Of a DNA stretch of 64,000 nt, positions 31,144-55,756 are shown piece after piece (the stretch's first letter is position 1; each line of letters opens with the position of its first letter). The stretch comes from a virus. The stretch lies in UHGV virus genome UHGV-0287696. One strand, given 5' to 3'. Both the position numbers and the translations under genes were made by a program. The notes under the pieces are model-generated. The model was not told the origin of the DNA. It saw only the letters and a list, made by a program, of their open reading frames with translations, and did no database searches.

Positions 31144-31151
31144 ATAAAAGT

Positions 31152-31200
31152 ACCTACCTCCTTTCGGAGGTAGGTAGACTTTCTTATTTTTTTTTCTTTT
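31152..31200. terminator. bidirectional terminator (ACCTACCTCC stem family)
   Basis: ACCTACCTCC-TTTC-GGAGGTAGGT with a long T tract; between convergent genes. Confidence 0.6.
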
Positions 31201-31764
31201 TTAAGCGCCTGGAACAATCCCAGAAGAGATATACGTCAAACCGTCAAGTTCAGTGACTTTAATCAACTTCGAAATATCCTTACCGTCAGACGGCAGCTCT
31301 GTTAAGTACACCTCCAGCCGCCCTGTCCACGCCAAAGATGTCCCATTCATGGTAATGATGGTTTTATCTTTGCTGTCTGGTGCAGCTGTTGGGTTCTCAA
31401 CTTCGTCGTCAGTAATCTGTAAATTGTACTTATTGCGGAAAAGCTGTAGTACCTCAGATACCGTAGCCGCATTAACACCCGCAACAGAAACTACAAAGTC
31501 ACCTAAGAGGTGCTCTAAATCCAAACGACGATAAATAACGTCGATTTTACCAAACGTTTTCTGTTCAATAATTCCCTGGACACTAAGTTGGGTATTTAAT
31601 CGCGTAAATTGGGTTTCTGGTGTTTCTACCGCAGGAATATGTGACGGTGTACCAAAATTCAACTTATCGATTGTAATACCTTTCTCTACCAAACCAGGAT
31701 TCTTTTTTACTAATAACTCATAAACCAGCTGTTTTCCTGATTTACCTAATAGCGTATTAGCCAT
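31201..31764 (-). CDS. hypothetical protein (virion-associated candidate)
   Basis: Minus-strand ORF with GAGGA upstream, downstream of the giant gene cluster. Confidence 0.45.
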   Translation of the reverse strand: MANTLLGKSGKQLVYELLVKKNPGLVEKGITIDKLNFGTPSHIPAVETPETQFTRLNTQLSVQGIIEQKTFGKIDVIYRRLDLEHLLGDFVVSVAGVNAATVSEVLQLFRNKYNLQITDDEVENPTAAPDSKDKTIITMNGTSLAWTGRLEVYLTELPSDGKDISKLIKVTELDGLTYISSGIVPGA

Positions 31765-31780
31765 TATTTCCTCTCAAACA

Positions 31781-33952
31781 TTAACGTGCTTGCGGCAAGA
31801 AGATGTTCGCGATCTGGCGTGCTGGAAGCACATCAAACGCAGAGTTAATAAAGCTGCCTTGTGACCACGCAGATGCCCAGTTCTGCGCCCAAATACTTCC
31901 TTGGATCTTGGCACGCTCTATACCGTTCGTACGTTCGTACAACGTCGCTGCGCCCAAACACGCCATAAACTCACTGAATTTATTATCGTCGTCCCAAACA
32001 CCTGTGTCTGTAACGATGGGCATATACATCACACGTGACAAATCACGGATGGTAACATTGATATCACAAGACAGTGGAACAGAATCACCTGGTCGCCAAC
32101 CTAAACCACCCACACCGAATTGTAAAGACAAAGACGTTACGATAGCATTACGGAACGAGAATCGACCTTGTGAGTAACACTCCAGATAAAACGGATGAGT
32201 GAATGATTGCTTACCCGTCGCAATTGGACATACTGCGGCGATCCAGAAGGACAGTGGGACTAGAATTTCCTGGAAGATATCCAGGTCACTTCCCGACCAC
32301 GCACGTAAAGGTATTGTCAAGTTAATATCATCGCCTGAAGCATCTGAACTGTCCCACACCTCTGGGAAGTCAATGACGGATGAATTGTATAACGACATAA
32401 TCCCCGTTAGATGCAACGTATCTGCTAACCCACGCATTACTGACTTAAAGCCCGTAATTAATGAATCGACCGCATTGAAGCCGGTTTGCCCGCCAGACAA
32501 GTTTACTTCAAGTTGACGAGCTTTCGCCGTCATTGAGTTAACTGTGCTAGAAATCTCCGGCTCTTTTGTAGAGTTAGAGAACGAACGAGAAACGGTATCC
32601 TTCCCATCGATTCTCCAGGTTACCCACTGAGAACCGTTGTAGATTTCGGACAGCGCTTGTGCTTTAATCCCTTCAATCTGTTCGCCAACCACTTTAACAA
32701 AGTCGCCGAAGAACGTCTCCATAGTCGATTCTTTACCTTTATCCGCCCAGGACTGTATCGTATTCTGTTGTCCCTCGGTGAGGTTACTCGCATCGGCATT
32801 TTCCAAATCCTCGTTCATTTTGTTTTGGATTTCCGCCGCCTGCGCCTCTAGGTCGCTTGCCGTTCCCCCAGTTTGTAGCCCGGAACTAAACGCATCGAGA
32901 ACCCCTTTTTCCAGTTCATCAACACTATTAATATCTTTGCCCGACGCGTCTTTCGCCGCATAGCCACCGCGCTCGGATGCAGCTAACCGCTCCATGTCTT
33001 GCAAAGAAACTTCGTAATTTCTCACATCGTCAGAATACGAAGCCGCACCATATGTGCTGTCTAAATAGAAATTTCGTATCCGCTCGGCGAGATCGTCGTC
33101 ACTTGAGGACTGCTTACGAAGTTCTTTTAAACGTTGATTCTGATAGTTCGCCAGGGTTTGATAACGGTTGATCATCTTAAAGACATCGAATTCACCGTCT
33201 TTTTTCCAAACCTCCGGCAACGCTTCAAAAGCTTCATCACGTGCTTTTTTGTTCCCTTTTCCATCGCCGTCTTGACTAACCTGGAAGGTACCTAAGATAC
33301 CCGTGGGAACCAAACGACGATAAACAAGCTGCGTATTCAAGATGTTCTGTACAGCACGCAAATACAGATGCATCGTCGGTTTAACGTAATAGTAACGCGA
33401 CGTTTGTTTATTCAACGCTGCCGCGAGAATGCGAGGAGTAATTAAAATCACCGCAAAAGCAACAGTACCTACAGTTGCCCATATCGCTGCCGCGCCGATA
33501 TAACTTGCTATCGTGCGGATCATTCCCGGATAATCACCCGTACGCGCTAAATACGCTAAGTTGGAATCGTACATATTCGCAAAGAACGCGGCCATACCCA
33601 GATATTTCGGCTTGCCGAAACGACAATGTACGTAAAACGAATTTTGGTTAATACTTTCGTAATAATACGTCCCTAAGCGATAAGAAGCGGTTGGCATACC
33701 GTTAGCCAACGCCTTTTTCTCCGCTTCACGATTACCGGGTCGTGCAAATGCCCCTGTTGATGGGGGGTCTGCAAACCACGTAAACTGCGGAGGGCTATTA
33801 ATCGCTTTGCTACCGCCCATGGTCGTATCTTCAAAAGACATCATACCGTTAGAGTAGCGTCGCAAGGCCAGAAAACGTTCATCTCGGCCTTCCAACTCTC
33901 CCTTAAATAGATTTCTGACCCAGCTTGAGTCGTTAGCTGATCTAGCGTCCAC
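31781..33952 (-). CDS. large hypothetical protein with a hydrophobic segment (virion-associated candidate)
   Basis: 723-aa ORF with GTG start and AGAGG upstream; hydrophobic stretch AAIWATVGTVAFAVILITPRILAAAL. Confidence 0.5.
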   Translation of the reverse strand: MDARSANDSSWVRNLFKGELEGRDERFLALRRYSNGMMSFEDTTMGGSKAINSPPQFTWFADPPSTGAFARPGNREAEKKALANGMPTASYRLGTYYYESINQNSFYVHCRFGKPKYLGMAAFFANMYDSNLAYLARTGDYPGMIRTIASYIGAAAIWATVGTVAFAVILITPRILAAALNKQTSRYYYVKPTMHLYLRAVQNILNTQLVYRRLVPTGILGTFQVSQDGDGKGNKKARDEAFEALPEVWKKDGEFDVFKMINRYQTLANYQNQRLKELRKQSSSDDDLAERIRNFYLDSTYGAASYSDDVRNYEVSLQDMERLAASERGGYAAKDASGKDINSVDELEKGVLDAFSSGLQTGGTASDLEAQAAEIQNKMNEDLENADASNLTEGQQNTIQSWADKGKESTMETFFGDFVKVVGEQIEGIKAQALSEIYNGSQWVTWRIDGKDTVSRSFSNSTKEPEISSTVNSMTAKARQLEVNLSGGQTGFNAVDSLITGFKSVMRGLADTLHLTGIMSLYNSSVIDFPEVWDSSDASGDDINLTIPLRAWSGSDLDIFQEILVPLSFWIAAVCPIATGKQSFTHPFYLECYSQGRFSFRNAIVTSLSLQFGVGGLGWRPGDSVPLSCDINVTIRDLSRVMYMPIVTDTGVWDDDNKFSEFMACLGAATLYERTNGIERAKIQGSIWAQNWASAWSQGSFINSAFDVLPARQIANIFLPQAR

Positions 33953-33970
33953 GTTATACCTCTAAAAAAC

Positions 33971-33990
33971 GGGGGTAGTTTCCTACCCCC
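33971..33990 (-). terminator. hairpin terminator or attenuator downstream of the giant gene
   Basis: GGGGGTAG-TTTC-CTACCCCC; on the minus strand it is followed by GTTTTTTAGA, just before the next minus-strand gene. Confidence 0.45.
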
Positions 33991-33999
33991 CTGTTGTTA

Positions 34000-36900
34000 T
34001 TACGCTGATTTACGACTAACGTCGAGTTTCGGCGCGGGTTGAGTTATTGACACGTTACGTGACGCCGAACCCGGAGCGGTTGACGCCGGGTTAGCCGGAC
34101 CGTTTTGCATAGCCTGTGGCCGCTGACGAAGAATTGTTACAATCTCTTTCAGATAGCCTGCAGACTCTTTTGCAACCGCCAGCTGTTGTACACTGATCGG
34201 ATCACCACTGTTCACTGTAGAAGCGGTCTGAGCATCGGAAGTTACCGTTGGTGCAGGACGGGCCGATTTCTCCATCTGCTGTCTAGCACCTTCTTTTACT
34301 TTGGCAACCTCTTCTTCGGCCAGGCCATCAGCACGTGCATTTTGACCCACCGTCTCTACAACAACTGACGCATCGCTCGGCGTGACATCGCCACCAGGAC
34401 TCGGCACAGCCGGACCACCACCCGTTGCAGCTTTAATATCTTCAGCACCCATCGCGCCTTTGTCTGCTAAAGCGGAGTCACGATTCGCTTCGTTCGCGGC
34501 TGGCAGGTTATCTGCCGGGCCTGTGATAGACGGATCGTTAGCAGCGCCTGCAGCGATAGCCGGGGAAGACGGCATTGGCGTTACACCTGTCGTCAAGTCT
34601 TTCAGCGATGCCTGGTTAGCCGCGATCGCGTTTGTTCCTACAGCACCAATCTTACCACCCATGATGTTGAGCACTTCATCCAAACTACGCAATTTTCCAT
34701 TCTTGTAGAAAATTGTGCTGTTTGCCGCGATTTGATCGGCCGACGCACCACGCGACGATGGGCCGTTCGGATCACGCTTCCATTCTTGCAGGAATTTCTT
34801 ACCGCCACCTTGTCCTAAGAAGTGGTAGAGGTAAACAGCTGCACCTGGAGGATCGATACCACCTAAATCCTTTCTGGCTTTCTCGATATTATCACGAATA
34901 TGACGGACGCCAAGCAGAGCATTCGCCCACGGGTCATACTGGTTGGTTTGCGGGATACCGTAACGTCTCGCGTAAGCTTTCATCTGCGCACCCCAGGTAT
35001 CGTTGATGAACTGGAACAAGCCAGCCGCAGAACTTCCTTTAGCTTTGATACCGTATCTAAGCCCAGATTCTGCTTGTGCCATTCCCAGTGCTAACGCTGG
35101 AGGAACACCCATCATCTTCGCTACGTCTGTAATCAGTGCTGCAACCGCATTCAAGTTAGGCTTCAATCCGTCACCCAACGTTGAAATTGGATACTTAGCC
35201 GCTAACGTTTTATAGTCACCGTCTTGCATATCGCCAAGTTTCACGCCGAAGTTACCGGTAGTAAATGCAGCGTAATTCTTAGCTCCCATCTGACCGTAAG
35301 CACCGGCCAAATCGTTTGGTGTGCCGTAATTCCCACCGTCGTTCGCTGCCGGTTGCAATAGGTCACGATAAGAGGAGGAGGTGTTCATCTGTGGTCGAGA
35401 CGGTTGCTCCTTCTCGTCATCGGTCAAGAACATCTGGGTCGCACGATCTTTTCGCTGCCAGTTCACACGGAAACCCGCAGAAGGCGTAGCACGCAGCGTT
35501 TTACGTACTGCCAAGTCAGCTTCCTTAGACAGTTCTTTCAGGTTCTCTAACTCTGTTGCAACTGAACCGGCGTCGGTGTTAGCGTCTCCCCCTAACGGGT
35601 TAAACGGTACCTCCCACACTGACTGACGAATACCCCCTTTCAGGTTGTATGCACCACGCATCATCAGTGCGATTTCATACAAGAACCCACCCGTAACGCG
35701 TAGGTCCATCGGATCGGCGGCAGGAACATAACGTTTTACCCCAACGATGTACGTCATGAAGACAGGTAAGAAGCGGTTATAGAACCAGTTCTTGTACCGA
35801 TCTTCTTTTGGCCCACCAATGGCGTCAGGCGCAATCACCGCAATCGCACGTTTCCAGTCGCCTTTATACGTGCAGCTTTTCACATCGGTGTCTTGCAACA
35901 CTTGACGTTCCAAGAGCGTATAGAGGTTACGGGTTGTTTGAGTAATGCTCACCGCACCATAAGCTTTCAACCTTACGGACTCCAAATCACGGAGATCGGT
36001 TTCTTTAGGTAAGCTTCTCCAGTCGACTTGAACCTGAACTTGTTCGGTGCCGTCTTCCCAACCTTCGACTTTCGCAACTTCTTTGTTGCGTTCCGCATCC
36101 GCTTGAGCCAACGCTTGGGTCGATTCCGCCACAGAAGCAACTTTGTGTCCTTCGGCCACACCGCCTGTAGCATTTACATCCTTACGTTTTTCATCACGAC
36201 GCATGTTAATCGAACGAAGCACGCGTTCTTGCGCTTCAACGACTTCTTCGCCTGACAAAAACTCGGCCGGGGTAAACGTTACGAAATCCCACGCTTTAGA
36301 GAACCAACCTTGGTTAACCTTGCGGGGATCTTCTAATGCACGGAATGCAGGCGCATCTTTCGACATCTTCATTTTGTTGAAGATATTCAACATGTCTGCC
36401 TTTGACACTTTCGCAGGATTACCGACATCTGCTAACGCGATATCATTATCCATGGATTTCAGTGCCGTAATCCAACGTAAATAGATCGGCACAAAACGTT
36501 GTAGCATAAACGCACTAAACGCCAGCATTTCGCCTTTGTCTTCTACGTTAGTACCAAACCCTTCGGCCAGTTTCTTCACGTCGTCACCGGACAAACCACG
36601 CAACTGTGCTTGGCCATTCTCTGTATAAGAGATATACGGTTTCAAGTTGTCTTCTAAATAACGTGCTTTTGCGCCATCATCGGAAGACCATTCGTCATGA
36701 TCTCTAAATCCGTACTGTGCCAATCGCATGTTATCCAGATACTGAGCATTTACACGGGTTGCAGTTTTATACGCAAACCAAGACACCGCAGCGCCCGCAG
36801 CGACCAAACCGATAATCGGCCAGCCAACCGCAGTTACCACTGCAGATGCTGCCGTCGCGACAGCACTCACCGCAGGGACAGCCAAACGGGTTACGGCAAA

Positions 36901-39900
36901 TTTACCAACGTTCCACAACGCTTTACCTGCAAACCCAACCGGCTTAAAGATTCCCCATTTTGCAACTTTACCTAAGATTGAACCCACTGTGCCCAAAATA
37001 CTCACAATCGGCCCTACCAACGGCAGTCCTTTAAGGAAATCCATTACCCCACGTTTACCGCCTTTCTTCTCAGCCTCTTTCTTAGCCTTTTCCTCTTCCT
37101 TAGAACGACGACGGCGTCGGAAGAACTGGAAGTAATCGCGTTTTTCATCACTGGCAGGTGGCTTGTTACGTTGACCGAACTTACTGAACATGGTTCTTAA
37201 CAAACCATCCGAAGCACCTGCTTTTTCCGCAGAATCACGCATGGTATTAAACCACGACATTTCCTGAAGATTAACCATTCGGTTCAGGCGTTCCAGTAAA
37301 GCCGACCCAACGCTACGGGCTTTCTGTTTCCCTTTATTAATCACACGTCCAGCGCTATCCGTTACGGTGTCTAAGTCTTCTTTTGCCGCATCGATGATAC
37401 GTGTTTTAGACACCTTGCCTCTTGCGTAGATGTGTTGACGATAAAACTCAGCAACGTCGTCATCGCGTCCTGCTAAACGACTCTCCATTCGATAACGTGT
37501 TCCAATGTCGTAACGCGGATCACGGAAGGTATCGACCATATCGCTTGCACGACCACGGAAACGGTCAAACCAATCACGTGCTGCACCACCCCAACGAGAA
37601 AGACGGCCACCTACCGCACTGCGGTAACGGGACATTCTGTCACGCATCCGACCACGCCAATCCCGGAACCCTTGAAAATGTTCACGGAACCCTTCGCGTA
37701 TGTCCTTAGCACGTTGGAATAATCCTTTAACTGAACTGGCCCCCGTATTCCGCTCCATCTGTTCTGTCCAGGTGTCATCTTCAGGTTCACCTGGCAATCT
37801 CCGGTTAAGGAGTTTGTAGATACGGATTAAGATGTGGTTAGTTTTACGGCCATTCGACCACGAGAACACACTAAACCCACCACCAGAACCCCCTTCCTTA
37901 CGGTTCTGCCACCAACGTGTCAACGGATTATCAGAAGCCAACTCTTTGAGCTTCTCAAACCCACGTTTTGCATTGTTCCACAGACGAGCTGGCATTCCCG
38001 TTACGCGGGAAATCATGCTTTGTAAACGGGTTTTCTCTGCACCCTCTGGAACCTCATTTAACCACTCGCGTGCTTTCTCGAACAACGAAGCCGCTTTAGG
38101 CGAAATGAAACCCAGAAGTTTCTTCGGTAAGGTCACAGCTTTGTTTACCGCCGTTCCTGCCTTCCCAGAAATGTACTGGAAAAGCGCTTGAACTTTACCG
38201 CCTTTGTAGAAGCGTAGTTTACCTGCGGCAGCCAAATCAGCAGCCGCTAAGATTAAATTACCCGCTTCGTCGACGATGTCACGTCCCAGTTTAATATCGT
38301 CGAGAGTTTTAAGTTGAATCAGCTTCTCAGTTTTCGGGTCAGCCTGGTAATAATCCCCAGCTTCTAAACGACTTCCTTGTAATACGACGTTACCACGTTC
38401 ATCGTAGATGTCGCGAACGCCTAAAACGCCTTTACCGAAAGCTACGGCAGAATTCCAACCAGTCGATAATGTACCAGTTACTAACCCTTTCAGTCGGCTA
38501 AATACGCCAGGACCTTCGGAGGAACCGCCTGAGAATTTCCCACGAATAAAACCACCTAATGCTTGTAGGCGATCTTTCCCACGTAGGAACAGATTCTTAC
38601 CAAACCGTCCTACACCAGAACCGGTATCCCAAAGCACCCCAGCCCAGCGACGTAGCAAACCTGTCTCGCCTAGTACAATACGTTTGCGCTTACGACGACG
38701 TTTACGGCCCGATTCACTCGAACTTTCAGGTTCGTCGCCGTCATCACGACTACCGCCTAAACTGGCTAGAAGAATACCTTCCTCATCCATGTTCTTAACG
38801 TGTTTGAGGATGTCTTGCACGATGCTAGATTCAGGCTGTTTACGTACCGCATCAATCAAACGATCGAACTGTTGTTCCAGCCCGGCGTTCGTATCTGGAC
38901 GGCTGCTTAAGAGCTCAACAAAGTTGGTAGATTTCTCTCCATAAAGTACCGCAGCGAGTTGACGGGCGCTTAAACCACGACCGCGACCACCCTTTCCACC
39001 ACCACGTACGTTGGACAGTTCTTTGTCTTCAAAGCTCGGCTCTGCACCTGCCCCCATCCGACGCAAGTAATCACCCAACGCAGAACCGTTTTGCAGCTTA
39101 CGTTGAATCTCTTGCTCACGGGTTAACGAACGGCCAGAGCGGGTCTTACCCATCGACAGGTCGTTAAATAGCGTATAGGGATCGTTAATGTCCTTATCGA
39201 CTTCGAAAATGTCGTTCTTCGCATCGTATTTAAAAATACCGGAATCGCGAAGTGCGTTCTCGCCGTAAATCACAGACGCAGCGTCAACCGTGTCTTGACG
39301 TGCACGAATCGTTGACTGGATAGCGGCGATTTTGTTTGAAATAGCATTACTCAGTTCATGGTGTCCACCAACCAGTTCCGCAGAACGGGCTTCTAAAACA
39401 CCCTGAATCGCTTCCACAGCGTTTGCGTTCATGTAACGATACATGTGCATCGGGTCTTTCAATAAAGACCCTACATCGAACGCTTTCCCTTCTGAGGCAC
39501 GAGACTCGATGTAGTCCGCTAACGCTTGACGTGTTTTCCTATCGAGCGTTTTATCTTTATCGATAAAGTCGACAGTGTCGTTGATGTACGTCTGTAAACG
39601 TTTACGCTGATCGTCATTAGCAACGGCCTTACGTACACGATTACCAATGACTTTGCGATCCACCATACCACGCGTGGTCAGGTCATAAACCTGATCGTGG
39701 TGTTCGCCATACCCACGACGAATAGATTTGTTAATCTCGGACAGTAACGTCGGAATAACTTCGGTGATACTAAGGTAAGCTTTACGATCGAATTTCGCCG
39801 CGGCAGAAAGAGATTCCGCAGAGCGATCATCTAATGCTAAGGTTTCGCGACGTAGCGGGTTAACTAGCCCCAAATCGTGCATTAGTCGAAACAGATCAGC

Positions 39901-41124
39901 TAACGGACCGCTTGTTTCTCCCGCTATTGCCGAGTTAGAAATAGACGACAAATTTCCAAAGCCATACTTCGCCAACTGTAGGCGTTTCATGACTTCTGGG
40001 TTTTTCTCTAACTCGCCACGTGTCCAGTTCTGAAGACGTTCGATCTGGGGTTGTAAGAGACGTTTTGCTAACCAACCACCTGCAAAACCTGCCGCTTTAT
40101 TACGCGAGTTTGTGTTACGACGGTCAGGAGACAACGATGAGCTGTCCGACATGTCAAAGTCATCTTCCTGAGCCATCCCTAGAACTTGTTCTAGAATCCC
40201 ACGGCCATCACTAAAGATGTTCGAGATTTTCTTCTTCGCGTTTTCGCGAATCTGACCAATGAAATTGTCTGCGTAGTGTAAGGGGTTCATCCACTCCGCA
40301 GCTTTACGTTTTACATTAGCCCAACGAATTTCAGAAAACTCTTCCTTCGCGTAGTCCGGTAGTGCTGTGTTCTTAACGATGGCTTCTAATGCCGGGGTGT
40401 TGCGTGCAAACTCGTCTTGTTTGAGTTTCGCAATATCCTGCAAAGCAAACAATGTCCGATATTGCAGCTCTAACTGCTTACGCTGAACATTTAACAACAC
40501 ACCACGACTTAAGCTAGTCGTTAAGTTGACGTCTTTCGCAATACCGATTACGGTCTGGAACAGTGCGTCGGACTTCATGTCCTTAATCGTGTCGCGCAAG
40601 CGGTCTTCAACCATCCCCTCTTGCGCCTCACGTTGCTGGTCCGCTGTTTGCGGTGCACCTGAGAACACGCTGTCCAGCTCACGATCCATCATCGCTTGTT
40701 TAGGATCGTAATTCCCATAGTCGATTTGATCGTTACGTGCCCACTTGTCGATTTTCCGTGTTACGGATTCCGGTAAATACCGTTTCAGTGTTGGGCCTAA
40801 CTGTCTCGCTTGCATCTTGACGACGCGAGACGTCTTTTCAATCTCGTCTTTCGTATGGGCCAGAATGTCTTGACCTGCAGCTTTAACGTTTTGATAGCCT
40901 TCGTAGGCTTCTGCCGCAGGTTTAGGCATCCCTTTTAAAATAACCTGATCACGTTTGTTTTCGGGCCAGATAGTCGACAACGCCGACTTACGGGCAGCAC
41001 GAAATGTGTCCATGACCGGGTTACGCGATTGGTCTTGTTGACGAGGGGGCTCATCAAAATCGTCCCAGTCGTCCATGTTATCAAGATCGATTTCATCGAA
41101 ATCATCTTTACCTTTTTTAGCCAT
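34000..41124 (-). CDS. giant virion-associated protein (2374 aa) with internal lytic transglycosylase domain
   Basis: Single uninterrupted ORF. Acidic N-terminus, hydrophobic segments mid-protein, SLT motifs (AQAESGLRYG, AAGLFQF, Y...) about 1950-2100 aa from the N-terminus, Ala/Gly/Pro-rich C-terminal tail. Confidence 0.7.
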   Translation of the reverse strand: MAKKGKDDFDEIDLDNMDDWDDFDEPPRQQDQSRNPVMDTFRAARKSALSTIWPENKRDQVILKGMPKPAAEAYEGYQNVKAAGQDILAHTKDEIEKTSRVVKMQARQLGPTLKRYLPESVTRKIDKWARNDQIDYGNYDPKQAMMDRELDSVFSGAPQTADQQREAQEGMVEDRLRDTIKDMKSDALFQTVIGIAKDVNLTTSLSRGVLLNVQRKQLELQYRTLFALQDIAKLKQDEFARNTPALEAIVKNTALPDYAKEEFSEIRWANVKRKAAEWMNPLHYADNFIGQIRENAKKKISNIFSDGRGILEQVLGMAQEDDFDMSDSSSLSPDRRNTNSRNKAAGFAGGWLAKRLLQPQIERLQNWTRGELEKNPEVMKRLQLAKYGFGNLSSISNSAIAGETSGPLADLFRLMHDLGLVNPLRRETLALDDRSAESLSAAAKFDRKAYLSITEVIPTLLSEINKSIRRGYGEHHDQVYDLTTRGMVDRKVIGNRVRKAVANDDQRKRLQTYINDTVDFIDKDKTLDRKTRQALADYIESRASEGKAFDVGSLLKDPMHMYRYMNANAVEAIQGVLEARSAELVGGHHELSNAISNKIAAIQSTIRARQDTVDAASVIYGENALRDSGIFKYDAKNDIFEVDKDINDPYTLFNDLSMGKTRSGRSLTREQEIQRKLQNGSALGDYLRRMGAGAEPSFEDKELSNVRGGGKGGRGRGLSARQLAAVLYGEKSTNFVELLSSRPDTNAGLEQQFDRLIDAVRKQPESSIVQDILKHVKNMDEEGILLASLGGSRDDGDEPESSSESGRKRRRKRKRIVLGETGLLRRWAGVLWDTGSGVGRFGKNLFLRGKDRLQALGGFIRGKFSGGSSEGPGVFSRLKGLVTGTLSTGWNSAVAFGKGVLGVRDIYDERGNVVLQGSRLEAGDYYQADPKTEKLIQLKTLDDIKLGRDIVDEAGNLILAAADLAAAGKLRFYKGGKVQALFQYISGKAGTAVNKAVTLPKKLLGFISPKAASLFEKAREWLNEVPEGAEKTRLQSMISRVTGMPARLWNNAKRGFEKLKELASDNPLTRWWQNRKEGGSGGGFSVFSWSNGRKTNHILIRIYKLLNRRLPGEPEDDTWTEQMERNTGASSVKGLFQRAKDIREGFREHFQGFRDWRGRMRDRMSRYRSAVGGRLSRWGGAARDWFDRFRGRASDMVDTFRDPRYDIGTRYRMESRLAGRDDDVAEFYRQHIYARGKVSKTRIIDAAKEDLDTVTDSAGRVINKGKQKARSVGSALLERLNRMVNLQEMSWFNTMRDSAEKAGASDGLLRTMFSKFGQRNKPPASDEKRDYFQFFRRRRRSKEEEKAKKEAEKKGGKRGVMDFLKGLPLVGPIVSILGTVGSILGKVAKWGIFKPVGFAGKALWNVGKFAVTRLAVPAVSAVATAASAVVTAVGWPIIGLVAAGAAVSWFAYKTATRVNAQYLDNMRLAQYGFRDHDEWSSDDGAKARYLEDNLKPYISYTENGQAQLRGLSGDDVKKLAEGFGTNVEDKGEMLAFSAFMLQRFVPIYLRWITALKSMDNDIALADVGNPAKVSKADMLNIFNKMKMSKDAPAFRALEDPRKVNQGWFSKAWDFVTFTPAEFLSGEEVVEAQERVLRSINMRRDEKRKDVNATGGVAEGHKVASVAESTQALAQADAERNKEVAKVEGWEDGTEQVQVQVDWRSLPKETDLRDLESVRLKAYGAVSITQTTRNLYTLLERQVLQDTDVKSCTYKGDWKRAIAVIAPDAIGGPKEDRYKNWFYNRFLPVFMTYIVGVKRYVPAADPMDLRVTGGFLYEIALMMRGAYNLKGGIRQSVWEVPFNPLGGDANTDAGSVATELENLKELSKEADLAVRKTLRATPSAGFRVNWQRKDRATQMFLTDDEKEQPSRPQMNTSSSYRDLLQPAANDGGNYGTPNDLAGAYGQMGAKNYAAFTTGNFGVKLGDMQDGDYKTLAAKYPISTLGDGLKPNLNAVAALITDVAKMMGVPPALALGMAQAESGLRYGIKAKGSSAAGLFQFINDTWGAQMKAYARRYGIPQTNQYDPWANALLGVRHIRDNIEKARKDLGGIDPPGAAVYLYHFLGQGGGKKFLQEWKRDPNGPSSRGASADQIAANSTIFYKNGKLRSLDEVLNIMGGKIGAVGTNAIAANQASLKDLTTGVTPMPSSPAIAAGAANDPSITGPADNLPAANEANRDSALADKGAMGAEDIKAATGGGPAVPSPGGDVTPSDASVVVETVGQNARADGLAEEEVAKVKEGARQQMEKSARPAPTVTSDAQTASTVNSGDPISVQQLAVAKESAGYLKEIVTILRQRPQAMQNGPANPASTAPGSASRNVSITQPAPKLDVSRKSA

Positions 41125-41153
41125 AACGTTTAATCCGTATCAGGAGATTTAGC

Positions 41154-42773
41154 GTGAATAAACTTAATTGGGTTGACTTTTATCTGCTCAATGTAAACAA
41201 GTCTCTTGTGTCGCGATTACGACCCGTCACGACCACGGATACTTTCCAGGGGTTAACAAAAAACTTTCACCCCGAAGGTCTTTACTCTACAGAGATATTT
41301 GGACTCACGGGGAGTGAAGCGCGAGACTCTACTTTCTCTTATATCGATATTAAACTCGATATCATTTCGCCGACGGTGTGTTTGGCGTTATTCCAACTCA
41401 AACAACTCTACGAAGAAATTTGTTCTGGAAAACGCTACGCAACGTGGAGCGAAAAAGAAAAAGATTTCGAACCGGCCTTGCCGGGAGACCCAGGCGCAGA
41501 TACCGGTTTTAACTTCTTCCTCAGTCACTATAACGATTTAAAACCTAAGCGTAACGAGTCCCTACAACGTGACGAAACCGTGGATTTCTTTTTGAAATTC
41601 CGTCCCGTTAGTCTTAGTCGATACGTTCTCGTGTTACCCGCGGGTTTACGCGATTTAGTAATTCGACAAGATGGTAGAGAACAGGAAGAAGAAATCGGCG
41701 GGATGTATCGTCGGTTGGTATCACTCGCCAGGGCGATCCCTGACCGAGCAACCCGTGTTGAATTAACTAACCCCGTGCGCTGGAAACTGCAACAAACCTT
41801 CAACGATATCTGGATGTATTTCTTTAACATCCAAGACGGTAAAGGGGGTTTCCAACGTCGTAAAGTGACGTCTCGTAAATTAATGAACGGGACACGTAAC
41901 GTACTGTCCTCGTTCTCGACGGGGTCTAAGTGCATGGGTCGTGAAGACGCTATTCGTCCCACCGACACCAAAATTGGTTTATACCAGGGTTTAAAAGCAT
42001 TACTCCCCGTTGCGCAGTACCAGATACGTGAACGTTACCTCGGTAACATCCGTGCTGGTGACGGCAACCTTTACGGCGTAAACACCAAAACCCTTAAACG
42101 TGAATTCTTGGAAGTAGGTGGTCGTGTATACGACACCTTTACCACCGACGATGGGATTGAATCCTTAATCAACCGAATGGAAGCTCGCGAGCTTCGCCAT
42201 CAACCGATTATGTTGGACGACACCCACTACGTTGCGTTGGTTTACCAAGACACCAAACATTTTAAGGTGTTCTACGATATTGAAGAACTTCCTAAAACGT
42301 TTGACCGAAAATTCGTTCACGGTATGACGCTCGTCGAATTGCTTTATTTGTCGGGCTACGAACTTTGGAACGATTATTTCGGTTTCGTTACACGTTATCC
42401 CGTTACAGGCCGAGGCTCGACGTATTCATCGACCATAAGATTGGAGACCACCACATCATCTTTATACTTAAAAGAACTGGAAGATGACTGGGAAACTGAA
42501 AAACCCCGAGGGGCTATCAGCTACCCTGACCGGTCGGTTCCTACCTTCGTTGAGTCGATGGCACCACACCCTTCACGCTTAGGTGGCTTAGGGGGTGACT
42601 ACGACGGCGATACCGGGTCGTTTAACGCGCCTATGTCCCAGGAAGCACTCGAGGAAAACCGGAATTGGATACACTCGAAAAACTACTGGTTCGATTCTGA
42701 TGGGAACTTTAAAATCAATCCTATCAACAACGTGATTAAACGTGCAACGCAAGCGTTATTAAAGAACCCATAA
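41154..42773 (+). CDS. large hypothetical protein with DYDGD motif (possible RNA-polymerase-like catalytic loop)
   Basis: GTG start with AGGAG upstream, divergent from the giant gene; GGLGGDYDGDTGSFNAP lies near the C-terminus. Confidence 0.5.
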   Translation: MNKLNWVDFYLLNVNKSLVSRLRPVTTTDTFQGLTKNFHPEGLYSTEIFGLTGSEARDSTFSYIDIKLDIISPTVCLALFQLKQLYEEICSGKRYATWSEKEKDFEPALPGDPGADTGFNFFLSHYNDLKPKRNESLQRDETVDFFLKFRPVSLSRYVLVLPAGLRDLVIRQDGREQEEEIGGMYRRLVSLARAIPDRATRVELTNPVRWKLQQTFNDIWMYFFNIQDGKGGFQRRKVTSRKLMNGTRNVLSSFSTGSKCMGREDAIRPTDTKIGLYQGLKALLPVAQYQIRERYLGNIRAGDGNLYGVNTKTLKREFLEVGGRVYDTFTTDDGIESLINRMEARELRHQPIMLDDTHYVALVYQDTKHFKVFYDIEELPKTFDRKFVHGMTLVELLYLSGYELWNDYFGFVTRYPVTGRGSTYSSTIRLETTTSSLYLKELEDDWETEKPRGAISYPDRSVPTFVESMAPHPSRLGGLGGDYDGDTGSFNAPMSQEALEENRNWIHSKNYWFDSDGNFKINPINNVIKRATQALLKNP

Positions 42774-42782
42774 GGCTAAGCA

Positions 42783-45700
42783 ATGCTGCTCATTAAACAG
42801 TTTAACCAACGCTTCTCGGTGCGTAAAACTGACGAGTTTGGTAATCCGAGGATTATCCCGCTCGAGAAGCTACAGATACCACGTGGTTCTGTACTCCATG
42901 TCATTGATCTCGACCAGGTGGTATTAGCGCCACCTGCAACACTCGAGATTATTCAACCGTTAGAAAAACCTGCACAGGTTCGTCACCACTTTAAATTACC
43001 GGAAGACGGTATTAGCGGTCATCCGCGCAACAAACCTGTTCAGGGGCAAGAACGTGCTATCTTTGCTTACCACCGTGCAAACCGCCCGATGCGTCGTCTT
43101 ACCTCAGACGATCTGGTTCGCAAAGACTTAAAAGTTCTCCTGGTCGAGAACTACACACCAATGCTATCGCACTACTACTATCCTGACACCCAGTTAGCCT
43201 GGTACGATAGACTGCGTAACATCCAACTGTTGATGATTAACCAGTTCAAATACGACACGCAAGAATACATGCGTCAGAACTATTTCGTTATTGAACTGGG
43301 TTCGACTCTACCTTCGTTCCAGAAGTTTCAAACAACCTATAACGACCGCGTTAAGAGCAAGATTGAGAAGTTCCAGGACTTCAACTTGCTGTGGTTATTG
43401 GAGTTGTTTGCTTGGGCTTATGGAAAACAATCCGATTCCCTATTCTCGGGAATGGATTTAACTCAGCTGTCACGAATGAACTTTATCTTCACCCACAACA
43501 CGGGCTTTACGTCCATGAACATGGGTGTTGTAGAGAAAATGCGTAAGTCGTCCGGCGGTCGTTTAAGTGATGACCAAATGGCCAGGATGTTCTACCGTAC
43601 GCTGGTGCGTGTAATGACACAAGCACCGTCTAACGCGTACGAAGCTGAATTCCTAACGCCTGAAGGCGACGAGCGTGTTTTCCTTAAAGACGTCGAAGAA
43701 GAAACCGTTGATGTTGTCGACGATGACGATGTTGTTAATGACGCTGTGGTGGAATCCGATAACACCTTCGATGAAAAAGAAGACGTTGTTATTGAAGAAC
43801 CGAAGGAAGACGTCAAACCGACGACCATCGTCGTCGAGAAAGTCATTCCGCATGACGAGATTATTAAACAGGAAGCACAACGCTTAGCTGAAGCGGGCCG
43901 CTTAAGTTCTAAAGCATATCAGTTCCTGTCAGAATCGTCTAAACGTTTCGTTCAGCTACCTAACCCGTATAACCCGAAAGAAACCTACGGGGAAGCACTG
44001 ACTGTTCACGAGAAAGATATCGTCGTTAAAGCCGAGCCGAAAAAAGTTCAGCGGCTTGTTACCGATGAAGGGTGGGCAGAGAACGTCACCGACCAGATGG
44101 TGAAACAATACAACCAGACCATGATGACCAAAGACGTACTGGCGGCGGTCGCCAGTTCACAACGTTTGGGTCTGGCGGTTCACAACCACACGGTGGAAAA
44201 AGAAGTTTCTGTTACAGGAACTATCGAGCACCACACCTTACGTGTTCAGCCAGTCGGTGGTGAGCCAACAACCGTTCGCTTCTCTATCCCAGGCTTGACC
44301 GAGGACGGTACTTGGGTCGCTAATGGTGTCGAATACACCATGCGTCGCCAACGTGTGGACTTACCGATTCGTAAGGTTGCACCGGATACTGTCGCACTGA
44401 CTACCGCTTACGGTAAAAACTTTGTCCGTCGTAGTGATAAAGTCGCAAACGATTACGGCCGTTGGTTAACCAACGCGATTATCACACGCGCCGTTGACCC
44501 GACAAACACCGAAGTCACCGATGCACGTTTAGCAAATGTGTTCGATCCTACGCAACATCTGCCTCGTCAGTATACGGAGATTGCACGCCGTATTGCCAGC
44601 TTTAATGCGAACGGCTATATGTGGAACTTCGACTACAAAGAAGCCGTTAACTTCTTTAACGACGAGCAACTCAGAGACGCCGATGCTGCCAAACTTCTGC
44701 CAGTGGCGAAACGTCCGCGTAGCGAAACAATCCTGGCAATGGATGACAAATCCATGCTTTACGGTGTGAACGGAAACAAAGTTGAACCAGTGGGAACCAT
44801 CGCAGAGGTATTGGGCTTTAATAACCAGAAAGTGCCTCGCGAAATGACCGAGCTGTCTTTGATGGGTAAATCTTTGTCGCTTGGTTTTATCTTCTCGTTC
44901 TATCTTGGACTCCAGGGAATGTTGAAACATTTCGGTATCCAGTACGAGTTGGTTCCTACAGGACAGCGTGTTGATAAGAATGCCTACGACAGTATTATTC
45001 GACTACAAGACTGTAAACTTTTAGTTACTTGCGATAACGATCAGCAGAGGATGATTCTGCATGGTTTGGATCGCTATCTCAAACACCTGGTTGCTTATAC
45101 CGAATCAGAAGCAGACCGCGAAGACATTTACCTGAACTTATTACGTGAAGCAGATGGCCTAACGCCACGGTACATCAACGAGCTGAAACAGATGCGGTCC
45201 GCGTTTGTTGACGACATGCACGCACGTATCCTCAGGAAAATGGGTGAGCCGGAAACCTTTATTGGCTTGCTGGAACGTTCTAACGAACTGTTACAAACTG
45301 ACCACTCTTTACCAGAGATTAACGGCGATGAAATGATGTTCTTAGGAAATCAGAGGATTGCCTACCACATCTATACTGCGATGGTCAGAGCGATGCGTAA
45401 CTACAATAACGCACCGGGCAGTAACCGTAAGTTCGAACTGACACAAGACATGGTTTGGGGTGCAATTAACTCCGACCCGTCGGTACTTTTGGCACCAGGC
45501 GCTAACCCTATCCAGTCAATTAAAGAAAAAGACGTTATTACGATGGGGGGTACAGGTGGTCGTAATCGTAAAACGATGGTCTACCACACGCGTGAGTTCC
45601 AACCCAGTGATATCGGGATAGTCTCGGGTAATACCGTAGATAACGGCGACGTAGGGATTACTGCTTTCGTCACCAATAACCCACGTTTTGACACCGTTGA

Positions 45701-46949
45701 CGGTACCACGTTTAAGCGTGAAGAGAAAACCCCGAAACCAAGCGATACCCTTTCGTTTATTGACGGGTTAGTACCCGATACGTTAATGGACGATGCAAAA
45801 CGTCAAAACTTCGTTGGGATTCAGTTAGGTTCTGCCACCAGTTGTAATGGGGCAACCACAACCCCGTATCGTACTGAACAGGAGAAATTCGTCGCACACC
45901 GTACTTCGGTGAAACATGCACGCGTTATTGATAAAGCAGGTAAGATTACTGGTCTGTCGAAAGACCACATTGAAATTACGTACGAAGATGGAAGTAAAGA
46001 AGCCTTTCCTCTAGGGCGCTGGTTCGGCCCCCACGAAGGTACCTTCTATCCGCACACCTTGGTAACACGCTGGAAAGCCGGTGATAAGCTCCCGGCCGGA
46101 GCAGTGATTACGTACAACGAGCAACACTTTGAACCTGATATTTACGATCCTACTCAGGTTTCCTGGAAAAACGGGGTGCTGGCCACCGTTGCTTTATTAG
46201 AAGCTGAAGAAGTTATCGAAGACTCCAACGCAATTTCTGAACGGTTCGCGAAGAAAATGGTGGGGCAGGTAACAAAGCTGAAAGAAGTGACGATTAACAG
46301 CAACCAGATGCTTTTGGAAATCGTGAATGAGGGCGACCACGTAGACGTCGATACAATCCTATGCACGTTTACTGACGACTTGACGGGCGATATGAGTGCC
46401 TTTAGTCAGGAAGCAGCCGCAACGTTGCAAAGTTTAAGTTCGTACGCACCTCGTGCAGGGGTACGTGGTATCGTGGATAAAATCGAAGTGGTGTATCACG
46501 GTGAAACCGAAGACATGACGCCAAGTCTTGCTGAGCTGGTGCGTAAATACGACAGAATTCGTCGTAAAGCCGCACTGGCAGTCGGACGCGGTGATCCGGT
46601 TTCAGGCAGTGTAAACGGCGACTACCGTGTCGAAGGTGTACCCTTGGCCTTTAACTCACTTTGTGTTCGATTCTTTATTACACACGACGTTGAGATGGCC
46701 GCTGCGGATAAGATGGTTATTGCTAACCAGCTAAAAACCACCGTACAAGAAGTCATGTACGGCGACAACAAAACAGAGGATGGTGATGACCTGGACGTGT
46801 TGTTCGGTCGCGATTCCGTCGATGCGCGTATCGTAGGTTCAATCCAACGTATCGGTACCGCGAATGCTGTAGGTGAACAAGCCGGGATTCTCATCGGGCG
46901 TATACTCGATGGGGAGGCTGTGCCTGATTTACCCGCGACACTTAAATAA
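42783..46949 (+). CDS. large hypothetical protein (1388 aa)
   Basis: Long ORF in the same frame as the upstream ORF, separated from it by TAA-GGC-TAA; internal acidic run; function unknown. Confidence 0.5.
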   Translation: MLLIKQFNQRFSVRKTDEFGNPRIIPLEKLQIPRGSVLHVIDLDQVVLAPPATLEIIQPLEKPAQVRHHFKLPEDGISGHPRNKPVQGQERAIFAYHRANRPMRRLTSDDLVRKDLKVLLVENYTPMLSHYYYPDTQLAWYDRLRNIQLLMINQFKYDTQEYMRQNYFVIELGSTLPSFQKFQTTYNDRVKSKIEKFQDFNLLWLLELFAWAYGKQSDSLFSGMDLTQLSRMNFIFTHNTGFTSMNMGVVEKMRKSSGGRLSDDQMARMFYRTLVRVMTQAPSNAYEAEFLTPEGDERVFLKDVEEETVDVVDDDDVVNDAVVESDNTFDEKEDVVIEEPKEDVKPTTIVVEKVIPHDEIIKQEAQRLAEAGRLSSKAYQFLSESSKRFVQLPNPYNPKETYGEALTVHEKDIVVKAEPKKVQRLVTDEGWAENVTDQMVKQYNQTMMTKDVLAAVASSQRLGLAVHNHTVEKEVSVTGTIEHHTLRVQPVGGEPTTVRFSIPGLTEDGTWVANGVEYTMRRQRVDLPIRKVAPDTVALTTAYGKNFVRRSDKVANDYGRWLTNAIITRAVDPTNTEVTDARLANVFDPTQHLPRQYTEIARRIASFNANGYMWNFDYKEAVNFFNDEQLRDADAAKLLPVAKRPRSETILAMDDKSMLYGVNGNKVEPVGTIAEVLGFNNQKVPREMTELSLMGKSLSLGFIFSFYLGLQGMLKHFGIQYELVPTGQRVDKNAYDSIIRLQDCKLLVTCDNDQQRMILHGLDRYLKHLVAYTESEADREDIYLNLLREADGLTPRYINELKQMRSAFVDDMHARILRKMGEPETFIGLLERSNELLQTDHSLPEINGDEMMFLGNQRIAYHIYTAMVRAMRNYNNAPGSNRKFELTQDMVWGAINSDPSVLLAPGANPIQSIKEKDVITMGGTGGRNRKTMVYHTREFQPSDIGIVSGNTVDNGDVGITAFVTNNPRFDTVDGTTFKREEKTPKPSDTLSFIDGLVPDTLMDDAKRQNFVGIQLGSATSCNGATTTPYRTEQEKFVAHRTSVKHARVIDKAGKITGLSKDHIEITYEDGSKEAFPLGRWFGPHEGTFYPHTLVTRWKAGDKLPAGAVITYNEQHFEPDIYDPTQVSWKNGVLATVALLEAEEVIEDSNAISERFAKKMVGQVTKLKEVTINSNQMLLEIVNEGDHVDVDTILCTFTDDLTGDMSAFSQEAAATLQSLSSYAPRAGVRGIVDKIEVVYHGETEDMTPSLAELVRKYDRIRRKAALAVGRGDPVSGSVNGDYRVEGVPLAFNSLCVRFFITHDVEMAAADKMVIANQLKTTVQEVMYGDNKTEDGDDLDVLFGRDSVDARIVGSIQRIGTANAVGEQAGILIGRILDGEAVPDLPATLK

Positions 46950-54877: not shown

Positions 54878-55753
54878 TTAACGAAGCTGATTTGCCATCT
54901 GTTCGTCGGACACAGAACGATAACCGCCAGCCGTAGCATCGACGTCTGGGTTGATACCGTTGGTCTGTTGAGACGGAGTAAGCCACAGTTTGCGTTCGTA
55001 AGGACGCAGACCGTAAAGCTTCATGCGCTCCAGTTCTTTCTGAGCTGCCTGCATCGGACCCCAACCTGTCCATTGCTGGGAGGTGAAGGTGATAGACAGT
55101 TCGTTGGTCTGAGGACCGGTGTTCGGGTCACGTTCACCGATATCTTGACCGTTAGACTCAGGAGCCATGTTCGTCAGCCACCACGCGTTCTGCGGTTTAC
55201 GCTGATACGCATCCGGTTCGAAATACAGCACGGTCATGCTGTACATATCCGGCAGGTGATCTGGCACATTCGGGTTGATTGCCGCCAGACCAGGGTGGCC
55301 TGTGTGCGGGTCACAAACACCGTAAACCAACCACGCCCAGAGCATGTTCTGATACACTTTACCCAGTTTATCCGGGGTCGTGTGCGTAACCGAAGACAGT
55401 GCTTCCGTTACCAGACCAGCTTCGTACTGAACGCGGTTGTTACGTCCCTGCTGAGTCTGTACGTACTCAGCACTCAGGGATTTGTCCAGGCCGGTAATCG
55501 TGGTGTGAACTTCGATGAAGGATTTGATTGCCTGACGCCACAGTTGTGGGTTCGGCATGTAATCAACCCAACGAGGGAATTCCATCACACGTGCGATTAC
55601 GTTACGACGCAGACGGTGGGCGTTGGTAACGAACTTACCAACCTGACCGACCGGACCGTTTTGACCAGACGAGAAGGGGTTAACCATATCGTACTGGCCG
55701 CCATCGACGTGGAGGCCCTGGTCAGGTAAAATCATGCGTTCTTTAATAGACAT
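54878..55753 (-). CDS. abundant virion protein, tail-tube-like candidate
   Basis: Start 3 nt after the stop of the upstream 685-aa gene; GGAGAG upstream; high-expression codon usage. The function is inferred from gene order only. Confidence 0.4.
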   Translation of the reverse strand: MSIKERMILPDQGLHVDGGQYDMVNPFSSGQNGPVGQVGKFVTNAHRLRRNVIARVMEFPRWVDYMPNPQLWRQAIKSFIEVHTTITGLDKSLSAEYVQTQQGRNNRVQYEAGLVTEALSSVTHTTPDKLGKVYQNMLWAWLVYGVCDPHTGHPGLAAINPNVPDHLPDMYSMTVLYFEPDAYQRKPQNAWWLTNMAPESNGQDIGERDPNTGPQTNELSITFTSQQWTGWGPMQAAQKELERMKLYGLRPYERKLWLTPSQQTNGINPDVDATAGGYRSVSDEQMANQLR

Positions 55754-55756
55754 CTA

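Follow-up and report, generated by a model that had tools for sequence, protein, structure and literature searches.

The giant gene and its family

The 64,000-nt stretch of viral genome UHGV-0287696 analysed here (the window) carries on its minus strand one giant gene, which lies between a pair of divergent virion RNA polymerase genes and a gene for a tail-tube initiator protein (Table 1). The open reading frame (ORF) runs from an ATG at position 41124 to a TAA at 34000 and encodes 2,374 residues. This is the single 7.1-kb minus-strand frame of 2374 aa that a first-pass annotation of the window had marked, and our translation bears it out. An open frame of this length would arise by chance with a probability of ~3e-50. 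The computed mass of the protein is 262 kDa and its computed isoelectric point is 9.4. The gene is slightly richer in G+C than the window on average, and it has a negative GC skew, as expected for a long minus-strand gene. The protein, known here from the genome sequence alone, is almost certainly the orthologue of gp239 of phage SPN3US and gp181 of phage phiKZ, that is, a virion tail protein with an SLT-type lytic transglycosylase domain predicted to be active.

Homology to the family extends over the whole protein. The family profile phrog_3201 is matched from end to end with 2,089 bits, and proteins of this type are 2,200–2,570 aa long, a range that includes the window protein. A tblastn search with the 2,374-aa sequence matched 262 phage records, 61 of them with at least 80% length coverage. 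The top matches, at 59–60% identity and 100% coverage, are in the Erwinia phages Asesino and phiEaH2 and in the Salmonella Seoulvirus group. In SPN3US the match at 205212-212327 is locus SPN3US_0239, i.e. gp239 (AEP84072.1), which is 59% identical to the window protein across 100% of its length. The proteins of SPN3US, Asesino (gp261) and phiEaH2 are 2,372–2,379 aa long and share with it the acidic N-terminus, the hydrophobic cluster, the SLT domain, the C-terminal motif and the neighbours on both sides. phiKZ gp181 (NP_803747, 2,237 aa) has a homologous arm and SLT domain, each part giving 24% identity to the window protein, and is flanked in the same way; it differs in reaching only 17–24% identity outside the SLT domain. 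Among 114 homologues from a large protein collection, the median length is 2,406 aa (10th–90th percentile 2,244–2,572). The first-pass annotation had pointed to a resemblance to the giant SLT proteins of phiKZ-like phages, and the phrog_3201 match, the identity to gp239 and gp181 and the synteny establish that this resemblance is homology.

The window protein is a new, moderately divergent member of this known family and not a new kind of protein. About 40% of its positions differ from SPN3US gp239, which, judged by sequence, is divergence at the genus level or beyond. The source phage is related to Seoulvirus and Erskinevirus and belongs to neither. The exact sequence falls in a 58-member cluster at 90% identity, composed of assemblies and one NCBI entry, EDC4983406.1, named 'transglycosylase SLT domain-containing protein [Salmonella enterica]'. 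Identity to the window protein is at most 60% at the amino-acid level in the phage record collection. Relatives at 99%, 96%, 87% and 78% identity are frequent in raw-read assemblies, in clusters of 58, 5, 2, 257 and 635 members. The source phage looks like a representative of an uncultured or unreported jumbo-phage genus tied to Salmonella or other enteric samples.

Table 1. Features of the giant gene and of its surroundings (nucleotide positions in the window; residue numbers refer to the giant protein unless a protein length is given).
Feature	Position	Strand	Residues or length	Basis
Giant tail protein gene	34000..41124	-	2,374 aa	ATG-to-TAA ORF and translation, phrog_3201 match, identity to SPN3US-like proteins, synteny
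Acidic N-terminal motif DDFDEIDLDNMDDWDDFDE	41050..41106	-	aa 7-25	Translation
N-terminal arm, mostly long alpha-helices, candidate length 'ruler'	37051..41124	-	aa 1-1358	AlphaFold2 model, DSSP
Basic stretch RRRRRSKEEEKAKKEAEKKGGKRG, directly N-terminal to the hydrophobic cluster	37048..37119	-	aa 1336-1359	Sequence
Hydrophobic Gly/Ala-rich cluster, two or three candidate membrane-inserting segments	36772..37050	-	aa 1359-1451	Hydropathy
Domain A, confident helical globular domain	36130..36759	-	aa ~1456-1665	AlphaFold2 model
Domain B, second confident domain	35521..36012	-	aa ~1705-1868	pLDDT 80-93; conserved W/F/R/P residues
SLT / lysozyme-like lytic transglycosylase domain	34642..35145	-	aa 1994-2161	Pfam, phmmer, model
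Predicted catalytic glutamate (AQAES)	35068..35070	-	E2019	Translation, alignment to gp144 Glu115
C-terminal tail: Ala/Pro/Ser-rich linker, conserved helix, terminal motif ITQPAPKLDVSRKSA	34003..34641	-	aa 2162-2374	
Terminator-like hairpin and T-run	33963..33990	-		GGGGGTAG-GAAA-CTACCCCC then GTTTTTT
Tail-tube initiator / baseplate spacer-ring protein gene, GTG start	31781..33952	-	723 aa	phrog_3181, BLASTP, PDB matches
Virion structural protein gene, SPN3US gp237 position	31201..31764	-	187 aa	phrog_2935, synteny
Virion RNA polymerase beta-subunit gene	41154-42773	+		phrog_2986 or phrog_3148 (pair with 42783-46949)
Virion RNA polymerase beta-subunit gene	42783-46949	+		phrog_2986 or phrog_3148 (pair with 41154-42773)
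Tail tube and tail sheath genes	54878-57814	-		Sheath, phrog_3242

Lytic transglycosylase domain and C-terminal part

The enzymatic domain is situated near the C-terminus. Pfam PF01464 matches aa 1999–2085 with 29.9 bits against a cut-off of 21.3 bits, and a phmmer search of PDB sequences aligns aa 1994–2161 with phiKZ gp144 (3BKH, 9xps_S) at E = 4e-19. With a profile of 44 family sequences, the match to gp144 has E = 9e-51 and that to MltC E = 8e-8. In the AlphaFold2 model of aa 1201–2374, the confidence score pLDDT is 87–95 over aa ~1940–2190, and the domain is modelled with the alpha-helical lysozyme-like fold. The first-pass annotation had proposed an SLT-type transglycosylase from short motifs. 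The PF01464 match lies above its cut-off and both AQAES and GLFQF are found; the domain search detected the SLT fold, which is present by Pfam, by the PDB match and in the model.

The catalytic center can be read from the alignment with gp144. AQAESGL occupies aa 2016–2022, giving an E-S pair at E2019-S2020, while GLFQF begins at aa 2035 and YLYHFLG at aa 2098. In gap-free stretches of the alignment, E2019 corresponds to Glu115, Y2051 to Tyr147 and Y2098 to Tyr197, and D2078 takes the place of Glu178. Glu115 is the catalytic residue of gp144, and mutagenesis implicates Glu115, Tyr147, Glu178 and Tyr197 in catalysis (PMC5406664). Across the 44 homologues this E-S pair is all but invariant. Since the four positions linked to catalysis in gp144 align, the SLT (GH23-type) domain looks catalytically competent. 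Muralytic activity has been reported for phiKZ gp181, the virion-associated peptidoglycan hydrolase of that phage (Briers 2008, as cited in PMC5380687).

gp144 is a second SLT paralogue within phiKZ, where it acts as endolysin and neck wedge. This protein (KZ144, PDB 3BKH) has 260 aa and an N-terminal peptidoglycan-binding domain, and only its catalytic domain is common to the window protein. In the phiKZ virion it is a structural 'wedge' at the neck, present in six copies (PDB 9xps chain S). phiKZ-like genomes give two SLT matches (gp181 and gp144) and SPN3US-like genomes a single one, so that in the latter another protein must be needed for the neck wedge and for lysis, presumably also in the window phage.

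The lytic module varies across the family. In some members it is replaced by a GH19 chitinase-like (PF00182), VanY (PF02557), CHAP (PF05257) or glucosaminidase (PF01832) domain, and that of Goslar gp204 belongs to COG3179. Certain members carry a Peptidase_S74 chaperone domain as well, with lengths of 2,700–4,000 aa. Such swaps in an otherwise collinear family indicate that the enzymatic module is exchangeable, which fits a modular role in cell-wall penetration.

The interval from the hydrophobic cluster to the SLT domain contains two further conserved domains, A and B. Neither could be matched to a family or fold (Pfam at E <= 1 returned SLT only, NCBIfam returned zero matches, and a fold search was likewise negative). 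A search of BFVD returned only orthologous halves of the protein and phage SLT endolysins; matches in BFVD to proteins named 'tape measure' were disregarded, as they had E of at least 0.02 and low probability.

The C-terminal 213 aa beyond the SLT domain contain 19% A, 9% S, 9% P and 8.5% G. Helices are predicted here with pLDDT up to ~90, including a conserved one at aa ~2310–2334, and the terminal motif TQPxPxLxVSRKxS is conserved among the closer relatives. The low-complexity Ala/Gly/Pro tail described earlier is therefore correct as to its Ala/Pro/Ser/Gly-rich composition, but with predicted helices and a conserved terminal motif it is not purely low-complexity. If the C-terminal residues in pb2 of phage T5 are a guide (bioRxiv 10.1101/2022.09.20.507954), this tail would be a hub-proximal anchor.

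N-terminal arm and hydrophobic cluster

The highly acidic N-terminus noticed in the first reading of the sequence is a feature of the whole family: the motif at aa 7–25, DDFDEIDLDNMDDWDDFDE, is kept from the window protein through phiKZ, Moabite and Goslar. We infer that it serves for docking, either to an assembly partner or at the tail end nearest the head.

The arm that follows is predicted to be largely helical. The AlphaFold2 model of aa 1–1200 has a mean pLDDT of 56 with helices of up to ~68 residues, and DSSP assigns 65% helix to aa 1–1350 of the models. Non-helical, beta-containing islands appear at aa ~478–489, 631–664 and 913–980 in this low-confidence model. Treated as an extended helix, the arm would have a length of 202 nm (1,350 aa x 0.15 nm). 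The tail of phiKZ measures 200 nm (PMC13250141, PMC13282480) and has 43 tube rings (PMC13250141). Converted in the same way, the 10th–90th percentile range for the start of the hydrophobic cluster among the homologues corresponds to 185–236 nm. This arithmetic, in which the tail length is that of phiKZ, is compatible with a ruler.

Two local features of the arm were also seen. A basic run, GRKRRRKRKR (aa 806–815; 38680-38709, minus strand), lies midway along it, within a region (aa 801–900) that is Gly-rich (21%) and carries a net charge of +16. This region comes out as disordered in the model and shows little sequence conservation across the relatives. The run might contact DNA or a negatively charged tube lumen. 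Self-BLAST of the 2,374-aa protein found no internal repeats save one short motif that occurs twice. The motif DI(Y/V)DxxGN(V/L)(V/I)L is present at aa 905–915 (38380-38412) and aa 949–959 (38248-38280) on the minus strand, the two copies being 44 residues apart within a small beta-containing island. Kwan, pVa-21 and Goslar have single copies. The consensus of longer relatives contains extra units of a similar kind, absent in the window protein, and these may be a route to variation in arm length.

C-terminal to the arm, a basic stretch leads directly into the hydrophobic cluster, and aa 1301–1400 have a net charge of +14. Hydrophobicity was taken as a 19-residue Kyte-Doolittle mean (KD19) with a threshold of 1.5. 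Peaks of 1.80 (aa 1359–1388) and 2.02 (aa 1414–1451) stand out against the remainder of the sequence, which does not exceed 1.36. The first-pass annotation had spoken of several long hydrophobic or Gly/Ala-rich segments; both strings that it quoted are present, but hydropathy resolves one cluster only (aa 1359–1451), and that this cluster spans a membrane is a reasonable inference. A cluster is located at the equivalent position in 105 of the 114 homologues, with its start at a median of aa 1430 (10th–90th percentile 1233–1573), and in full-length relatives the SLT domain lies ~550–600 residues beyond it.

Gene neighbourhood and transcription

Local gene order is identical in JN03, SPN3US, phiKZ, Asesino, Kwan, CR5, pVa-21, Moabite and Goslar. 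In every relative examined, the giant gene and the virion RNA polymerase genes (gp240/gp241 in SPN3US, gp180/gp178 in phiKZ) diverge, and the homologue of gp238 (SPN3US), gp182 (phiKZ) and gp203 (Goslar) lies downstream of the giant gene. The 723-aa neighbour in the window matches phiKZ gp182 by BLASTP at E = 3e-35, PDB 11lx_H ('Tail tube initiator complex protein gp203', Goslar) at E = 8e-58 and PDB 9xqs_K ('PHIKZ182') at E = 1e-51. SPN3US gp238 is an essential tail protein (PMC5105663), and phiKZ gp182 forms a hexameric ring that acts as a spacer between tube initiator and hub (PMC13250141). The 723-aa protein also matches PDB 36za_rp, 'Capsid decorator gp77', at E = 5e-56. This name conflicts with those of 11lx_H and 9xqs_K and may reflect a labelling problem in that entry. 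For the 187-aa product encoded next, similarity to phiKZ gp184 was not detected.

A terminator-like hairpin with a T-run is positioned 10 nt past the stop codon of the giant gene, before the GTG of the tube-initiator gene, and the annotation of phage Moabite has a terminator in the corresponding place. A second hairpin, bidirectional, at 31151-31176 closes the three-gene minus-strand block. Because the strong terminator-like hairpin separates the giant gene from the tube-initiator gene, transcription of the block may be attenuated on passing from the first gene to the second. On the other side, the gap between the ATG of the giant gene and the GTG of the divergent polymerase gene is 29 bp (41125-41153), as it is in SPN3US, which implies that the promoters overlap each other or sit within the opposing coding sequence. 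A clear Shine-Dalgarno sequence was not seen before the giant gene, only a GGA ~11–13 nt upstream. A scan for sigma-70 promoters gave 7 sites against 12.2 in a shuffled control and is uninformative, as expected for a phage that has its own RNA polymerases.

The tail tube and sheath genes are ~14 kb from the giant gene, with RNA polymerase, prohead protease and other genes between. Genes for thymidylate synthase, MazG and the prohead protease were also identified further off in the window. The tail genes are dispersed and do not form one module, as in other phiKZ-like phages.

Probable virion location and proposed function

Published work on the orthologue SPN3US gp239 places that protein in the tail. 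In the SPN3US papers gp239 (259.1 kDa) goes by the name of tail tape measure protein, and mass spectrometry detected it in virions (PMC5105663, PMC10052503). It is missing from tailless gp64-mutant particles, and heads of the 255(am107) sample show a more than 10-fold depletion (PMC5105663, PMC10052503). The window protein also has the tape-measure hallmark of hydrophobic segments (aa 1359–1451) followed by a peptidoglycan-hydrolase module towards the C-terminus (aa 1994–2161), and its adjacency to the tube-initiator gene is circumstantial evidence for residence in the lumen. We consider that the giant protein is probably a tail-lumen tape-measure and penetration protein of a phiKZ-like jumbo phage with a contractile tail, acting by the full mechanism that follows.

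A few copies would lie in the lumen of the tail tube, their C-termini fixed in the complex of hub and initiator, from which the tube polymerises, while the helical N-terminal arm would span the ~200-nm tube and set or match its length. Upon contraction of the sheath, the spike would dissociate and the giant protein would be expelled ahead of the DNA. The SLT domain could then cut a local hole in the peptidoglycan, and the hydrophobic cluster, behind its basic stretch, could insert into the cytoplasmic membrane. Once inserted, the cluster may anchor the tube tip or line a conduit for the DNA and co-ejected proteins.

The tape measure pb2 of phage T5 has its parts in the same order. There a long coiled-coil ruler is followed by 46 hydrophobic residues read as two transmembrane helices, then by the muralytic domain and finally by a trimeric C-terminal coil that sits in the baseplate hub (bioRxiv 10.1101/2022.09.20.507954). 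Cryo-EM supports a sequence in which pb2 is expelled from the tube, its 46-residue stretch enters the membrane and its muralytic domain is set free in the periplasm (bioRxiv 10.1101/2022.09.20.507954). The mechanism proposed here is the same, with expulsion, membrane insertion and local digestion of peptidoglycan. Sequence homology between the window protein and pb2 was not detected, and the two systems differ in several respects. The T5 tail is non-contractile, the muralytic domain of pb2 is a zinc peptidase rather than an SLT domain, and pb2 is about half the size of the window protein and is cleaved during assembly. The window protein has ~540 residues, comprising two extra domains, between the hydrophobic cluster and the enzyme.

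Several observations weigh against a tape-measure and penetration protein. As used for SPN3US gp239, 'tape measure' is a name given by annotation rather than a tested function. A solved chain of the protein did not turn up in the PDB, whether the query was the window protein, phiKZ gp181, Goslar gp204 or the family profile, and the 40-protein phiKZ atlas and the Goslar virion paper mention neither gp181/gp204 nor a tape measure. As an extended helix, the whole protein would measure 356 nm, far exceeding the 200-nm tail of phiKZ; only the N-terminal arm fits that tail, and its boundary was picked after the fact. The model-helical residues of the arm alone would give 133 nm. A tail length for the window phage or for SPN3US was not found in the literature searched. 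A tail-assembly chaperone gene with a frameshift was not found upstream, where the neighbour is the divergent RNA polymerase gene, and the sheath and tube genes are remote (~14 kb). Chaperone genes with a programmed frameshift, of the lambda G/GT type, are common before the tape measure genes of long-tailed phages but not universal, so that their absence does not bar the protein from the tape measure class.

The remaining adverse points concern the hydrophobic cluster. One in ten residue shuffles (10%) of the window protein gives a peak as high as 2.02, the best window on the Hessa scale (a simple sum) is marginal at +2.5 kcal/mol, the AlphaFold2 monomer model shows the cluster as low-confidence coil, and the aligned region of phiKZ gp181 stays under the KD19 threshold of 1.5. 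As the shuffles make peak height alone non-significant, we do not claim transmembrane helices as proven. The non-random signal is the clustering and the positional conservation, not the peak height.

Of the other readings, the one that fares best retains the tail-lumen penetration protein and drops the ruler. Tail length would then be set by the sheath or tube with a terminator, or by another protein, and the long arm would serve only to cross the cell envelope or to fill the lumen. The mismatch between the full-length helix and the phiKZ tail, with agreement for an after-the-fact boundary only, the beta-containing islands of the arm and the lack of a detected adjacent chaperone gene all favor this version, and a ruler test in any orthologue was not found in the literature searched. 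However, protein length is conserved (10th–90th percentile as above) despite divergence to ~20% identity, as is the distance from the N-terminus to the cluster. Moreover, no other very long helical protein was seen in the tail gene neighbourhood and the giant gene adjoins the tube-initiator gene. We judge a role confined to penetration to be unlikely.

Distinctly less probable is a head-packaged protein that, like gp16 of T7, is ejected through the tail and builds a channel across the envelope while its SLT domain cuts the wall. gp16, with the related 'internal virion protein D' proteins, is likewise a large SLT virion protein that aids passage of the genome across the envelope, and this reading is suggested by the SLT domain of the window protein, which is 34–36% identical to those of T7-like Aeromonas and Escherichia phages. 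The similarity is limited to the SLT fold, however, and gp16 differs in belonging to short-tailed phages, in being packaged in the head and in carrying its SLT domain at the N-terminus, whereas that of the window protein is near the C-terminus and the orthologue is tail-associated. Tailless SPN3US heads that are filled with DNA either lack gp239 or contain it at levels reduced more than 10-fold (PMC5105663, PMC10052503), and the downstream partner gene encodes a baseplate or tube-initiator protein. Of the virion-borne, wall-degrading ejection or tail-lumen protein that the first-pass annotation envisaged, the wall-degrading tail protein stands, with an orthologue in the virion tail and a muralytic gp181; the head-packaged sense of 'ejection protein' is unsupported, because the orthologue is tail-associated.

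Database names suggest an external component. 'Tail fiber protein' is the prevailing name in the family, the commonest annotation of orthologues and the name of phrog_3201, while a few records are named 'lytic transglycosylase' or 'virion associated peptidoglycan hydrolase'. The tail fiber name appears to be a propagated misannotation, since published structures assign the fibres and the spike to other proteins. A tail fibre as in GenBank, or the needle-like cell-puncturing device once proposed for gp181 and still listed in reviews (PMC5380687), is the least credible reading of all: in the phiKZ atlas gp164 and gp163.1 make up the spike, gp101 the hub and gp131-like proteins the fibres, none of them gp181, the Goslar spike and cap are gp13 and gp48, an ordered 260-kDa outer protein would be hard to miss in maps at ~3.9 Å, the resolution given for the Goslar baseplate, and the prediction is mostly helical with three globular domains, lacking a beta-helix, fibre-like repeats or internal repeats by self-BLAST.

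Implications for the family and for infection

In itself the window protein matters little, as one more, fairly divergent orthologue in a well-populated and already annotated family. What it yields is a domain map of that family, with an order of parts kept across 100 or more homologues: an acidic N-terminus, a helical arm of ~1,360 aa with a basic patch, the hydrophobic cluster, two domains, a swappable lytic domain and a C-terminal anchor. The 2026 structures of phiKZ and Goslar place the product of the neighbouring gene at the tube-initiator ring (PMC13250141, bioRxiv 10.64898/2026.04.21.720040) and leave the 260-kDa giant protein itself unmodelled, which is a pointer to where its density could be sought.

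The membrane-like segments may also bear on the first step of infection. phiKZ-like phages inject their DNA into an early-phage-infection (EPI) vesicle derived from the inner membrane, and a review reports tomograms in which the inner tube of phiKZ is attached to it. The Goslar structure paper names the shaping of the vesicle bilayer as a key open question. In the literature searched, we found neither a statement tying gp181, gp239 or gp204 to the EPI vesicle nor a phage protein assigned to coupling of the tube tip to the inner membrane or to seeding of the vesicle. The giant protein would be the first out of the tube and carries the only membrane-like segments, and on these grounds we raise the speculative idea, rather a long shot, that the hydrophobic cluster and domains A and B might couple the contracted tube tip to the host inner membrane and so seed or shape the EPI vesicle. 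Since these phages deliver their DNA into such a vesicle, experiments on its formation have a reasonable candidate in the presumed membrane-active part of the protein that would leave the tail first.

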